Source: an uncultured Chitinophaga sp. (GTDB taxonomy: Bacteria > Bacteroidota > Bacteroidia > Chitinophagales > CAIOSU01). From it: a stretch of DNA of 32,355 bases. The stretch lies in contig CAYYZT010000001.1 of the NCBI GenBank assembly GCA_964476015.1, positions 1-32,355 of the forward strand, written 5' to 3'. The notes under the pieces are model-generated. The model was not told where the DNA came from and ran no database searches. It worked only from the letters and a program-made list of their open reading frames with translations. Both the position numbers and the translations under genes were made by a program. Below are positions 14,030 through 31,516 of the stretch, one piece after another (within the stretch, counting starts at the first letter, position 1; every line of letters starts with the position of its first letter).

Positions 14030-14932
14030 ATGGCAACGACAGTAACCAAAATAAACGTGCGGGATATTGTTTCCTCGCACATATTCGAGACGATTGAAGC
14101 CTTGCTTGCACAGGGCAATAAAATCGAATGGCAACGCCCTTGGTCGGTGGATAGCTCCATAGGCGCACCGTACAACCTCGGTACGAACCGCCCTTACTCC
14201 CGTTCCAATTTCCTGATACTGCAAATGCAGCTTATGCTGAAGGGCTACGGACACAACGCATGGCTCACCTTTAAACAGGTTCAGCAGTTCGGAGGGCATG
14301 TGCGCAAGGGCGAGAAAGGAACGCCCATTGTCTTTTTCCGAAAGACCAAGGAGGAAAAGGACGACCCGGACACGAGCGAGGCGGTAACGGAAACCAAGAG
14401 CCTTTTGAGGTATTATGTGGTGTTCAACTTCGCACAGGTGGAAGGGCTGAACATAGCACCCACCGAACAGGAAAAGCCGACCGTGAAATTTGCGACCGTG
14501 GAGGAACTGGAGCAGATGGTTCGTAACGCGGGCGCAAGCATCGAGCACATTGCCCAGGACAGGGCATATTACAACGTAACAATGGACAAGATTGTGATGC
14601 CACTATTGGAGCAGTTCCAAGGTTCGGACGGTTATTATTCTACCTTGTTCCATGAGCTTTCGCATTGGACGGGCCATGCCTCAAGGCTTAACCGTGGTTT
14701 AAACCTTACCCTTCGTAAAAAGCCAAGCCAATATGCCTACGAGGAATTGGTGGCGGAACTGGCAAGCGTGTTCCTTTCGCAGGAACTGGGCTACCAAACA
14801 GCCGAGCTTTCCCAAAACTCTGCCGTGTACCTTTCGCATTACTACGAACTGTTAAAGGAGAACAAAACCGCTTTCCTTTCCGCAGCTTGGGCAGCGGGAA
14901 GGGCTGCGGATTATCTTTTGAGGTTTAGGTAA
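14030..14932 (+). CDS. ardC: ArdC-like anti-restriction protein (N-terminal ssDNA-binding domain plus zincin metallopeptidase)
   Basis: The N-terminal hallmark motifs are WQRPW and TFKQVQQFGGHVRKGEKGTPIVFF. The C-terminal HExxH motif is LFHELSHWTGH. Confidence 0.85.
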   Translation: MATTVTKINVRDIVSSHIFETIEALLAQGNKIEWQRPWSVDSSIGAPYNLGTNRPYSRSNFLILQMQLMLKGYGHNAWLTFKQVQQFGGHVRKGEKGTPIVFFRKTKEEKDDPDTSEAVTETKSLLRYYVVFNFAQVEGLNIAPTEQEKPTVKFATVEELEQMVRNAGASIEHIAQDRAYYNVTMDKIVMPLLEQFQGSDGYYSTLFHELSHWTGHASRLNRGLNLTLRKKPSQYAYEELVAELASVFLSQELGYQTAELSQNSAVYLSHYYELLKENKTAFLSAAWAAGRAADYLLRFR

Positions 14933-25303: not shown

Positions 25304-25498
25304 CTAATTATTAAGTAATGATTTGGGCACAACTTCCTTTGGCTCAACTACCAAATAGCTGATGTTTGGGTTTTGGAATAGTTGTAAATACATCTTTCCG
25401 CCCTCTTTGATTTTAATGATCCCTATTTTGTGAAATAGTTTCTTTACCCGGCCATCATGATTGAACTCCTGTTTACTAAGTACGTTGAATAGCTGCAT
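25304..25498 (-). CDS. Hypothetical 64-aa protein
   Basis: The call rests only on the ORF. It is convergent with the 461-aa gene, with a 7-nt gap between them. Confidence 0.35.
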   Translation of the reverse strand: MQLFNVLSKQEFNHDGRVKKLFHKIGIIKIKEGGKMYLQLFQNPNISYLVVEPKEVVPKSLLNN

Positions 25499-25515
25499 AT
25501 TTTATGCTTTTTTAA

Positions 25516-25743
25516 TTACGGTTAATACGGTCTGAAAGGCGACGACTATGTATTTCGACAATACATGATTGCAATTGCGGGTAGAAAAGCGACACCATCG
25601 CACTAGGTATATCTTTTGCGACATTTGGTATGGTTTTCAAATGGGCTTATAAGGCCCATAACTCAGCAACTGCATGGTAACTGTCCGAGATTAATGGGCT
25701 TTTAATTTAAGCCGCCTTTCAGACCCGCATAGTATAACCGTAA
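25516..25743. other. Roughly 230-nt structured element closed by a 22-bp long-range helix (candidate ncRNA or recombination/regulatory DNA structure)
   Basis: TTACGGTTA (25516-25524) pairs with TAACCGTAA (25735-25743). GGTCTGAAAGGCG (25529-25541) pairs with CGCCTTTCAGACC (25713-25725). Internal hairpins are 25548-25566 (a 7-bp stem) and 25641-25659 (an 8-bp stem). AATGGGCTT is repeated at 25640 and 25693. Confidence 0.45.
25676..25687. repeat. Left copy of the inverted repeat flanking the integrase gene
   Basis: GGTAACTGTCCG is the exact reverse complement of 26729-26740. Confidence 0.55.
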
Positions 25744-25749
25744 AGGTTT

Positions 25750-26688
25750 TCATTGCAAGCCTTGCCTGTGGATTTCGTAATAACTGGATTTAATCTTTTT
25801 TAATCTTCGGTTTTCTGGTAGAAATGCCTGCTGCAGACGTAACTGCTCCTGTGGGTTAAGCCTGGTGTAATGGTGCGTGGATTCCATGGAAACATGGCCA
25901 AGGGCAATCTGTATATTTTCCCTTGTGCCGCCATGTGCAAGGATGTAGTGGCCGCGCCCGTGCCTGAAGCTATGAGGGTTCATTTTTACGCCCAACTCAT
26001 TACCAATTTCCTTGCACCATCGCTGCACCGTGCGGCTTGTAAGCCGGGTACGCTTACCGTTCTTAATTCCCTGCGGTGTTTGGAAAAGTTCAGGAGCTTG
26101 ATTTAAACATACTCTGATACCGAGGTATTTTATCAGTAGCTTGTGGCATGCCTCATTCCAAACCACAATACGTAGTCGTTTGCTCTTAAGCGACCTGATG
26201 AGCATGTGCCGTTCTTTCAGGTTTATATCCGTAATATTGGTAGCGAGCGATTCCCCTATACGCATGCCAGTATTCCAAAGCAAATTGAAAATTACCTTTT
26301 GCGTGAGTTGGTAGTAATTGTCCTCACTTAAGTAATCGTCTATCAGATCGAACATTTCAGGAGTGATTACGTTGGGCTGCTTTTCGGCAATCTTCCGTGG
26401 GCCGTTTATAAGCTCGTAAGCGACTTCCGTTTCCCTTTTCGCATACCAATACTTGAAGAACCCGCGCAAGCTGTGTGCTTTGTTTTGCCTCGTCTTTGGG
26501 CTGTGGGTTTCAGCAATAGCGATTAGATAATCATCTATGTCATCATTGGTTGCATCTTTCAGGTCTTCCTTTTTTAGGTGCTGAAAGAATTGGCGCACAT
26601 CGCGCTCATAGGTATAGCAGGTTTTTTCTGCCAGATTTTCGGCACGCTTAATAGTAATATAGCGTGCCAGTGCAGTTTCAAATAGCAT
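25750..26688 (-). CDS. Tyrosine recombinase/integrase (XerC/D-like phage integrase family)
   Basis: Catalytic signature motifs are NTGMRIGESLA (Arg I), HSFRHGRGHYIL (H-x-x-R) and LGHVSMESTHHYTRL (His/Tyr). An N-terminal SAM-like core-binding region is also present. Confidence 0.85.
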   Translation of the reverse strand: MLFETALARYITIKRAENLAEKTCYTYERDVRQFFQHLKKEDLKDATNDDIDDYLIAIAETHSPKTRQNKAHSLRGFFKYWYAKRETEVAYELINGPRKIAEKQPNVITPEMFDLIDDYLSEDNYYQLTQKVIFNLLWNTGMRIGESLATNITDINLKERHMLIRSLKSKRLRIVVWNEACHKLLIKYLGIRVCLNQAPELFQTPQGIKNGKRTRLTSRTVQRWCKEIGNELGVKMNPHSFRHGRGHYILAHGGTRENIQIALGHVSMESTHHYTRLNPQEQLRLQQAFLPENRRLKKIKSSYYEIHRQGLQ

Positions 26689-26728
26689 AATGGCTGTAAT
26701 ACAAGCCGCCCGTTTGGCTTGTGTGTCC

Positions 26729-26740
26729 CGGACAGTTACC
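26729..26740. repeat. Right copy of the inverted repeat flanking the integrase gene
   Basis: CGGACAGTTACC is the exact reverse complement of 25676-25687. Confidence 0.55.
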
Positions 26741-26823
26741 TAATAATACTATAGCACACAAATTGTAAAATTGTATTATCATAATTATGATTACATAATC
26801 ATAAAATATATGTTATAAACATA

Positions 26824-28185
26824 TTATTTTGATAATATTCTTTTTATCGAAGTAAAAAATGAAGTATTCATTTGTTCCTTGTGAATTTTATAAAGAAGTA
26901 TTGAAGCAACTAGATTGAAAAACAAGGCCAAGGCATTTAATACATAAATAACGTTAAAGGCTTCAAACAACAAAAATATATGTTTGCTGCTTATTGGAAA
27001 AATAAAATAAACAATAATAAACCACAAAAGAGAGAAAACTAAACCTCCCAATCTAGTTAATCTAGCATAAGGATTTTCTTTTATGGCTCCTAGACTTACT
27101 TTATAAAATAGAGTTAATGATAAAGTAATAAATATGGCTATAAAATGAATTTCTGGCAGAATTATAGTATTAATTGGAAATGCTTCTTTAATAGTGCTTA
27201 ACCTTGTGGCATCTAAGCCGTAAGCAAAAAACATCGATAAAAGAAATGCGAACAAAACATTATTGACTATTGGATGGATTTCATTTTGGATCCCAAAGTG
27301 AAACTTTAGATCCTTAACTTTATCTTCCAATTTTACTAATTTAAATTTCCCATCCTCTGGTCTGTAGTAGTGACGTTCTTCAATTCCTTTTTCAATCCAT
27401 TCTTTAATATACTTTGCACTATTAGTTTCTAACGATTGAAAAGGATTATCCTTAAATGACTCTTTAGCATTATCGTCCTTAGAAATCTCTGCATACATAT
27501 TTTTTGCGGTATAGGAATAAGGCATTATAAAGTAAATGGAATTATCCAAGCATTCCAAGCAGGAGAAATCATCAAAAGCAATAGCAAATTCAAGTTTATC
27601 AAATTTTTCCTTTGCTTTAACCTCTACTACTGAAAAGTTTATCAATTCAATTGAATCCAATAAATTATTATCCTCGGGTTGTACGCGATATTCAAGAGAT
27701 GAGTCATTCTTACTGATATCTCTTGCATCTATTATTTTGGCAATTGTAGGTGCTTGAGTAGCATCTGATATGTCTTGTACTAGCAAATAGTTGCTGCTTA
27801 CAATTACGTCCTCAGTATATTCTTTCTGAAAGACATCAATATATGCTGCACGAAACTCATTGCTATTATTGAGCACATCGGTTTTCTCTCCCCAAACAGC
27901 TTTCCAAGGAACTATCTCGTTCTTAAAGGTAGAGTTTTTGTTGAAATGCTTAAAATCATATTTTTTATCGCTTTCAAGCTTCGTTTTTATTTGTATGCTA
28001 TAATCTTGTTTTAATTTAACTTTTTTTCTACTATCCTGCTTATCTCTTGCCCCAACAACAATTGCATTATATATGTACAGCGTTTTTAAATCGTTTTCCC
28101 AAAAGACAACGCAATAAAGTTTTCTTACCGTTATTACCGGATATGAATGTTTATTAGCATTTACTATTTCAAGGGTTAATCTCAA
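26824..28185 (-). CDS. Unknown N-terminal domain (about 300 aa) plus a C-terminal 4-TM domain; candidate membrane effector
   Basis: C-terminal hydrophobic helices are VLFAFLLSMFFAYGL, IHFIAIFITLSLTLFY, LGGLVFSLLWFIIVYFIFPI and VIYVLNALALFFNLVASILLY. Its ATG overlaps the methyltransferase stop by 4 nt. Confidence 0.65.
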   Translation of the reverse strand: MRLTLEIVNANKHSYPVITVRKLYCVVFWENDLKTLYIYNAIVVGARDKQDSRKKVKLKQDYSIQIKTKLESDKKYDFKHFNKNSTFKNEIVPWKAVWGEKTDVLNNSNEFRAAYIDVFQKEYTEDVIVSSNYLLVQDISDATQAPTIAKIIDARDISKNDSSLEYRVQPEDNNLLDSIELINFSVVEVKAKEKFDKLEFAIAFDDFSCLECLDNSIYFIMPYSYTAKNMYAEISKDDNAKESFKDNPFQSLETNSAKYIKEWIEKGIEERHYYRPEDGKFKLVKLEDKVKDLKFHFGIQNEIHPIVNNVLFAFLLSMFFAYGLDATRLSTIKEAFPINTIILPEIHFIAIFITLSLTLFYKVSLGAIKENPYARLTRLGGLVFSLLWFIIVYFIFPISSKHIFLLFEAFNVIYVLNALALFFNLVASILLYKIHKEQMNTSFFTSIKRILSK

Positions 28186-31441: not shown

Positions 31442-31516
31442 TGGGCGCTGCAGGATTCGAACCTGCGACCCTCTGCTTGTAAGGCAGATGCTCTGAACCA
31501 ACTGAGCTAAGCGCCC
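31442..31516 (-). tRNA. tRNA-Val: tRNA-Val (anticodon UAC)
   Basis: I folded the 75-nt cloverleaf by hand. The acceptor stem is GGGCGCT/AGCGCCC with discriminator A. The D stem is GCTC/GAGC. The anticodon stem is TCTGC/GCAGA with loop CTTACAA. The T arm is GCAGG-TTCGAAT-CCTGC. CCA is not encoded. Confidence 0.9.

Follow-up and report, generated by a model that had tools for sequence, protein, structure and literature searches.

Antisense and 5' untranslated region (UTR) RNAs control a number of mobile elements, as in FinP/traJ of F and the retroregulation of lambda int by RNase III at sib. Among Gram-positive plasmids, the conjugation operon of pLS20 is headed by a 456-nucleotide (nt) leader that carries a zipper-type transcriptional attenuator, cATT (PMC13401043). 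A locus that recalls these systems is found in a 32,355-nt stretch of DNA from an uncultured Chitinophaga sp. of the Bacteroidota (contig CAYYZT010000001.1 of assembly GCA_964476015.1), the whole of which is called the window here. Positions 25516–25743 hold a noncoding element of 228 nt between the gene for a tyrosine recombinase (the integrase) and a small gene. The reading favored here, with a probability of about 0.5, is that the element is a structured 5' leader RNA of the small-gene operon that may also pair with the 5' end of the integrase mRNA.

The zipper-type attenuator of the pLS20 leader appears to be the closest described analogue found (PMC13401043). In both systems a long structured leader, predicted in the case of the window, heads an operon of a mobile element and immediately precedes the first small gene of that operon. 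In both, pairing between an upstream and a downstream segment lengthens a long stem, and the architecture is kept among relatives while the sequence differs. In pLS20, however, the downstream segment can alternatively form an intrinsic terminator, whereas here no U-tract follows the 3' arm, either in the window or in a 12-member subfamily of homologous loci (A2). The window element also differs in having a stretch complementary to the predicted transcript of the neighboring integrase gene. The resemblance to FinP/traJ and sib is that an RNA duplex with the mRNA of a recombinase or regulator is proposed to set the fate of that mRNA. The position 3' of int is also shared with sib, and in cis the structure could form only on read-through transcripts, but the sib hairpin is local and the window has a 5'–3' bracket. 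FinP comes from the strand opposite its target, unlike the present case, where an inverted repeat 1.0–1.3 kb away on the same strand would target the predicted extreme 5' end.

The features that carry the leader reading are the following, in window coordinates.

25304–25498, minus strand: conserved small gene for a beta-rich protein of 64 amino acids (aa) and no known family, with homologues in about 40 loci
25516–25541, minus strand: 3' arm of the closing helix, with the inner 13 nt at 25529–25541 and the outer 9 nt at 25516–25524, ending 17 nt before the small-gene ATG
25676–25690, minus strand: downstream copy of the repeat that brackets the integrase gene (CGGACAGTTACC), with complementarity to the 5' end predicted for the integrase mRNA
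25713–25743, minus strand: 5' arm of the closing helix, with the outer 9 nt at 25735–25743, the inner 13 nt at 25713–25725, and the TATACT box in the internal loop
near 25724, minus strand: predicted transcript start, at the 5' arm of the closing helix
25731–25758, minus strand: sigma-70-like box TTGCAA-N16-TATACT from a consensus scan, the candidate leader promoter, overlapping the integrase stop codon
25750–26688, minus strand: XerC/D-like tyrosine recombinase of 312 aa (the integrase), with a Pfam Phage_integrase match of 4.7e-24 and SAM-like N-terminal domains
26726–26740, minus strand: upstream copy of the bracketing repeat, GGTAACTGTCCG with an extension to GGA, located at the +1 predicted for the integrase transcript
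26741–26753, minus strand: –10-like box TATAGT (26753–26748) and a 7-nt spacer, the candidate integrase promoter, preceding the upstream repeat copy

A first-pass annotation, made from the letters of the DNA, had described arms at 25516–25541 and 25713–25743 that pair over 9 + 13 bp around about 170 nt, and a repeat finder confirmed them. The inner arms (25529–25541 and 25713–25725, 13 nt) and the outer arms (25516–25524 and 25735–25743, 9 nt) are each 100% complementary, with 171 nt between the inner pair. The spacings given there are correct on the minus strand, on which the element begins 7 nt past the integrase stop and ends 18 nt short of the 64-aa open reading frame (ORF). The element is single-copy in its genome. 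Its plus strand folds at –83.8 kcal/mol (z –6.97) and its minus strand at –79.1 kcal/mol (z –7.28), and in neither case was any of 200 dinucleotide shuffles as stable. The enclosed 171 nt alone, folded as DNA, gave z scores of –3.65 (plus) and –2.77 (minus). The predicted leader, from 25725 to 25485 on the minus strand, folds at –71.6 kcal/mol (z –5.67), with a 15-bp closing helix that encloses nested stems. The view that this is more than a simple terminator is supported. The statement that the element has no credible ORF of its own needs a caveat, as two overlapping frames of 40–42 aa (25502–25624 and 25512–25640) lie inside it on the coding (minus) strand.

The element is part of a conserved module. 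A metagenome scan with an integrase alignment returned 79 loci. By a hidden Markov model of the small protein, about 40 loci from genomes and metagenomes (some 32–35 of them distinct) carry the small gene 160–700 nt downstream of the integrase and on the same strand; the module is sparse, yet it spans several families. Genomes G258, G113, G205, and G496 are among its carriers. The nearest homologue, L003, comes from a metagenome-assembled genome of the Sphingobacteriales and has an integrase that is 74% identical, the same layout, and a homologous small gene. Its arm pair is perfect, 15 bp long, with the arms 164 nt apart. When window and L003 are aligned by their conserved flanks, six of the 13–15 pairs differ, and all six differences are compensatory and none disruptive. 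A related contig from a different organism (X4, about 91% identical) has no changes in the 44 arm bases versus at least 13 substitutions and three indels elsewhere in the element. Between subfamilies the sequence of the closing helix differs and its complementarity is retained. In 18 of the 32 distinct loci, a long-range inverted repeat with its 3' arm ending 5–75 nt before the ATG outscores 38 or more of 40 shuffles (mean z 3.25), and the distance from the 3' arm to the small-gene ATG is constrained to 5–70 nt. Conservation beside related integrases, one of the checks named in the first-pass annotation, extends to about 40 loci, with the helices kept through compensatory changes. One locus has an additional structure: in L043 (3212–3383), an extra near-perfect inverted repeat of 27–30 nt, 118 nt apart, lies directly after the integrase stop and upstream of the usual architecture, and it may be a small insertion.

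The annotation could name no RNA family for the element, and Rfam 15 names none either. At gathering thresholds the whole window gave a tRNA only, and with E values up to 5, the best match to 25400–26850 reached 21 bits versus a threshold of 51. Six homologous loci likewise gave a tRNA only. A blastn search of the region against plasmid records found no match, and the element as DNA gave a single 37-nt match in 40 relatives, in the genome of L003. An insertion resembling a miniature inverted-repeat transposable element was rejected, with the element single-copy in its genome and its inner content homologous across loci.

Loci that lack the integrase show which gene the element goes with. Homologues of the small gene occur in 11 of 401 genomes of the order, and the gene is co-oriented with the integrase and downstream of it wherever an integrase is present (about 40 loci). 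A sample of 400 genomes from the phylum added one further carrier, with five copies. The complete genome G496 has five small-gene copies (L103, L104, L105, L106, and L107), of which two are in full modules of integrase, small gene, and Rep_O-like gene and one is weak. L103 and L104 have a predicted structured leader and no integrase, with a divergent open frame of 318–344 aa upstream instead. In these two copies a TTGCA(A/C)-N17-TAGTAT box is kept and is followed by a long-range helix with 3' arms that end 5–25 nt before the ATG. Because the integrase-less copies retain the box and the helix, the structured element belongs to the small gene and not to the recombinase. The first-pass annotation had proposed, as one possibility, a noncoding RNA associated with the recombinase or the mobile element; its structured RNA remains the best fit, but the tie to the recombinase does not hold, and the element is more like a 5' leader.

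The same parts recur in the same order along the gap between integrase and small gene. The order is a sigma-70-like box, the 5' arm, the downstream repeat copy, a hairpin whose sequence varies, at least one GTCG[CT]A motif (often GTCG...CGAC), a further hairpin, the 3' arm, and the start codon. Inside the window's element these parts are the following.

25548–25566, minus strand: hairpin presenting TTGTCGAAA, seen in folds of the inner segment
25579–25601, minus strand: terminator-like hairpin GCGAT-GGT-GTCGC followed by TTTTCT, from a consensus scan and of uncertain role
25608–25622, minus strand: conserved motif GTCGCAAAAGATATA, with the pattern GTCG[CT][AG]A[AC]A[GC]ATAT
25641–25659, minus strand: local hairpin ATGGGC-CTTATAA-GCCCAT, seen in folds, with hairpins of other sequence at the same position in L003, L007, L009, and L012

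The two strong hairpins that the first-pass annotation had pointed out, at 25548–25566 and 25641–25659, are present in every fold. Its 8-nt palindrome (GCAATTGC, at 25571–25578) is there as well, and the repeat finder recovered the repeated AATGGGCTT. Local hairpins hold their position while their stems differ among loci. In L003, L045, and L026 the motif TTGTCGAA(A/G)ACA is retained with covarying stems, and the A2 subfamily has P1 and variable P2 arms. The terminator-like hairpin is not kept in L003 or in the related X4 contig.

The GTCG motifs behave differently from the arms. Matches to GTCG[CT][AG]A[AC]A[GC]ATAT occur in 12 listed loci, always oriented from integrase to small gene; in the A2 alignment, GTCG and the CGAC that partners it vary little or not at all; and GTCG[CT]A...T[AG]CGAC is present in two to five nearly invariant copies per gap. 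Such copies could be operators or iterons in regulatory or origin DNA that acts as a duplex. The small protein would bind them, or else the Phage_rep_O-like winged-helix protein encoded next in most loci, and the long-range repeats would be paired binding sites for looping. The gene after the small gene in 27 loci does have weak matches to the N-terminal winged helix of Phage_rep_O (E values of 7.7e-06 to 2e-03, below the Pfam cut-off) and is followed by genes for DNA methyltransferases, and the bracketing repeat has its upstream copy overlapping a predicted +1, where operators are typically found. As an account of the whole element this is unlikely. The arms and local stems vary freely yet stay complementary, unlike protein-binding sites, the window and L003 keep the full architecture without a Rep_O-like gene, and folding across the family goes far beyond that of shuffles, with an excess on the sense strand. 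An operator or iteron role limited to the GTCG motifs is compatible with an RNA leader, and the two can coexist.

Promoter-like boxes are found where a leader transcript would need them. At least seven subfamilies have a box of the form TTGCxx-N16/17-TAnAnT that lies 4–8 nt before the 5' arm, with examples in L083, L023, L040, the A2 subfamily, L105, L106, L103, and L104. The sequences of several of these boxes are as follows.

Window and L003: TTGCAA-N16-TATACT, with identical hexamers
L083: TTGCAT-N16-TAGAAT
L023: TTGCAC-N17-TAGGAT
A2 subfamily (12 sequences): TTGTTT or TTGCTT-N17-TATAAT, preceded by an intrinsic terminator of the integrase gene
L105: TTGCAC-N17-TATAAT
L106: TTGCCT-N17-TATAAT

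A second box lies upstream of the integrase gene. In most of 19 aligned loci a TTGnnn-N17-TA(C/T)A(C/G)T box ends 6–7 nt before the upstream repeat copy, in most loci in the fuller form cTTGCxx-N17-TA(C/T)ACT; in the window's candidate integrase promoter, the –10 part alone is convincing. Both long-range partners, the 5' arm and the upstream repeat copy, would therefore start at a predicted +1. The canonical TAnnTTTG box of the Bacteroidota is absent from nearly all of the gaps and integrase-upstream regions scanned, which leaves the conserved sigma-70-like boxes as the sole promoter candidates. The scan of the gaps found essentially no TAnnTTTG promoter, and an early candidate of this type, TATATCTTTTG on the plus strand, was dropped.

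The bracketing repeat is what would link the leader to the integrase. The upstream copy and 25676–25687 form a perfect inverted match of 12 nt, or of 15 nt with one G.T. Inverted pairs of 12–19 nt bracket the integrase in 17 homologous loci, with best scores of 12–18 for inverted versus 8–12 for direct matches. Of its independent single mismatches, three are G.T on the sense strand and one is A.C. The downstream copy is predicted to be mostly unpaired in the leader fold, with an unpaired probability of 0.62 when that of the entire leader is 0.44, and in 16 of 19 loci its accessibility exceeds the leader average. The outer end of the repeat holds a conserved core, GTAACTTAA. A further hairpin is located between the upstream copy and the integrase gene.

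26701–26722, minus strand: hairpin in the putative integrase 5' UTR (ACAAGCC...GGCTTGT)

Its stems covary, with GCCC-GAAA-GGGT, GGGC-GAAA-GCCT, and GCCTC-AATA-GAGGT at the same position in other loci. In the A2 subfamily the integrase mRNA is unlikely to form a 5'–3' panhandle by itself, since the downstream repeat is separated from the integrase gene by a terminator and a new promoter box. As for the integrase itself, the top NCBIfam matches are XerA, XerD, and XerC models, every one below its cut-off, and the catalytic residues R143, K168, H239, R242, H265, and Y274 are invariant in seven homologues.

Inverted repeats next to a recombinase gene can also be sites of DNA inversion. In fimS with FimB/FimE and in the Tsr-type switches of Bacteroides, inverted repeats surround a noncoding segment of 100–300 bp that precedes the regulated genes and adjoins the gene for a small tyrosine recombinase. 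The arms, the bracketing repeat, or both could be inverted in this way by the adjacent recombinase, in a switch of the fimS or Bacteroides type or in a Hin-like segment that includes its own recombinase gene. Perfect inverted repeats of 13–25 bp around 120–300 bp do lie beside a simple tyrosine recombinase here, and the repeat core is conserved across integrases that are only 30% identical, as a recombinase-binding site would be. Inversion is nonetheless improbable. The integrase, inner segment, GTCG motif, and small gene are in one orientation in all of about 35 distinct loci, and in no locus is the bracketing repeat found as a strong direct repeat. The only promoter-like box is outside or at the edge of the would-be segment and not inside it, and the helix persists in the integrase-less copies. 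No RNA run was listed among the sequencing runs that contain the region. Four DNA runs showed the reference orientation and no strand-change joints, which is a weak point, as these were Logan contigs only, at 3–15x, in which a rare inversion is possible.

Folding across the family favors the strand of the proposed leader. For the last 300 nt of the gap in 32 loci, the mean z score was –4.75 for the sense versus –3.92 for the antisense strand, and the composition-corrected excess stability was larger on the sense strand in 24 of the 32, by 4.1 kcal/mol on average. The window encodes a relaxase, MobC, and a T4 coupling protein, and in three other genomes these mob genes likewise lie on the module's strand. 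In conjugative or mobilizable DNA, Frpo and ssi elements are folded noncoding elements of about 200–300 nt that precede small early genes and have genes for anti-restriction proteins and methylases around them (PMC11541004), and in these respects they are like the window's element. A single-stranded DNA element of conjugative transfer, either an Frpo-like promoter or a single-strand origin folded in the transferred strand for early expression or priming, would fit a module that occurs with relaxase, MobC, and coupling protein genes, has good folding on either strand, and has nearby ArdC, RadC, and orphan methyltransferase genes typical of leading regions (PMC11541004). In the window, the small gene, integrase, and cargo all point toward a candidate oriT at about 23.2–23.9 kb, and the plus strand could be the template. 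This explanation is quite improbable all the same. Frpo rebuilds its –35 and –10 in a stem, whereas here the boxes lie outside the helix, upstream of it in most subfamilies, so that the hairpin would not rebuild a duplex promoter; in the window itself only the box spacer is paired and the –10 is in an internal loop. In addition, the strand with the excess of stability, the sense strand, would here be the non-template one.

The module is found in chromosomal islands with a tRNA-Val gene. A tRNA-Val(TAC) gene occurs by the island in three genomes (L003, 2641–2716; the window, 31442–31516; and L098, 1449–1524), and the distances from tRNA-Val to integrase in the three are about 290 nt, 4.7 kb, and about 17 kb. 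In L003 the tRNA gene lies just upstream of the integrase, and the window and G113 have it at the edge of the island. No 13-mer of the tRNA-Val region recurs in the window. The X4 contig matches 25464–26748 at about 91% and neither of its flanks resembles the window, which indicates that the integrase and the element travel together. That they do so would be expected if the element were a folded attP- or attC-like substrate for the integrase, comparable to integron attC or the single-stranded attP hairpin of the CTX phage, and the imperfect long-range hairpin with its asymmetric internal loop beside a XerC/D-like recombinase also fits. Yet such a substrate is very unlikely here, as the element is unsplit between integrase and small gene in islands beside tRNA-Val, is single-copy with no array of sites, has arm sequences that are not conserved between relatives and by eye are unlike the 3' end of tRNA-Val, and keeps its structure in the integrase-less copies; the lack of recurring 13-mers from the tRNA region points the same way. 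The folded single-stranded or attP-like substrate put forward in the first-pass annotation is a poor fit on two further counts, the single orientation of the inner segment in all loci and the sense-strand stability excess in 24 of 32.

Other genes of the islands are those of mobile elements. Similarity to the X4 contig stops 8 nt outside the upstream repeat copy, and for this reason the point just beyond that copy looks like a hot spot for cargo insertion. In the window, a five-gene nucleotide-modifying cassette is located exactly between the tRNA and the integrase promoter region. A homologue of the ArdC-like anti-restriction protein is encoded in the same island at 14030–14923 on the plus strand (tblastn E value of 2e-29 to ArdC of L040). 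The Rep_O-like gene (e.g., L007, 1705–2154; L012, 1724–2443; L036, 3827–4339; and 24 other loci) is followed by Dam-type or N6/N4 DNA methyltransferases, with RadC, ArdC, and a coupling-protein-like ATPase nearby.

The small protein has no Pfam or NCBIfam match, and tblastn searches of plasmid and phage collections found none. Its structural model has a long beta hairpin plus one strand (pLDDT 81); it matches nothing in the PDB at E values up to 0.001, and its Atlas neighbors are unnamed, the nearest cluster with a name being DUF736, which scored a weak 0.76. In most members of the family the C-terminus is an acidic ELPxI(D/E/Q) tail (alignment A3; e.g., L007, 1501–1698) that recalls the C-terminal tips of SSB, and the window's copy is without the tail. 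A small protein of the SSB or PC4 type is unsupported, the model having no PDB match.

Several observations weigh against the leader reading. The main sigma factor of the Bacteroidota is not known to use sigma-70-consensus promoters, and the promoter call is for that reason one of conservation. In the consensus scan, sigma-70-like sites in the window were no commoner than expected by chance, so that the weight of the window's own box comes from its conservation among loci, and its TTGCAA also codes for the last two residues of the integrase. The outer 9-bp arm lies upstream of the predicted start, and as RNA it could pair only on a transcript that reads through from the integrase gene. The window's own element folds about equally well on either strand. 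Mismatches in the closing arms, at 15 G.T versus 15 A.C, show no preference for G.U on the sense strand; they fit a DNA-level repeat equally well, and repeats homogenized at the DNA level, as under inversion, would look like this. Over all helices the counts are 61 G.T versus 46 A.C, with 342 versus 326 in shuffles, which is not decisive for the strand. Finally, the core of the bracketing repeat (GTAACTTAA) is conserved and the GTCG motifs are invariant, which suggests that proteins may recognize the DNA or RNA in addition to any pairing. A mixed RNA and DNA control region is likely, because the motifs and the repeat core suggest that proteins also read the region.

The analysis establishes a conserved anatomy with compensatory variation, its linkage to the small gene, and where the repeats stand relative to the promoter-like boxes and the start codon. 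Transcription and its start sites, the RNA–RNA contact, and a regulatory effect are what we infer from this anatomy. Under the leader reading, a sigma-70-like promoter overlapping the end of the integrase gene would start transcription at the first bases of the inner arm, giving a leader of about 210–230 nt at the head of the small-gene operon of a Bacteroidota integrative mobilizable element. The 5' end of this RNA would pair just upstream of the small-gene start codon and close a domain with several hairpins and the conserved GTCG motifs, in which a stretch of 12–15 nt (25676–25690) would stay largely unpaired; this stretch is complementary to the nucleotides with which the integrase mRNA is predicted to begin. 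The closing helix may set the stability of the small-gene message, its translation, or both. The exposed stretch could pair with the 5' end of the integrase mRNA, in trans or, on a read-through transcript, in cis, and the pairing would couple integrase expression to the element's early operon.

A more tentative proposal, and one we regard as possible rather than probable, is that this constitutes a two-transcript RNA circuit conserved in mobilizable elements of the Bacteroidota. A leader stretch of 12–19 nt, encoded 1.0–1.3 kb away on the same strand as an inverted repeat that brackets the integrase gene, would pair with the 5' end of the integrase mRNA, the 5' end of the leader would be locked upstream of the first gene's start codon, and sigma-70-type promoters would serve both transcripts. 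Such RNA pairing would couple integrase production to the activation of the element's early genes. The design is a concrete one, with two conserved promoter-like boxes, two long-range pairings at predicted 5' ends, and a conserved protein of 65 aa whose fold is unknown. Both boxes, in the window and in loci such as L037, L047, L039, and L105, have the sigma-70 consensus and not the TAnnTTTG expected for the phylum, which raises the question of which holoenzyme of the polymerase would read them. Were the repeats to act as DNA instead, there would still be an unexplained and widespread arrangement in which a recombinase gene is bracketed by its own conserved repeat. If the leader reading is right, the element would represent an undescribed structured RNA family, without a match in Rfam. 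It would then be a control point between integration and early gene expression in elements that carry defense and anti-defense cargo.

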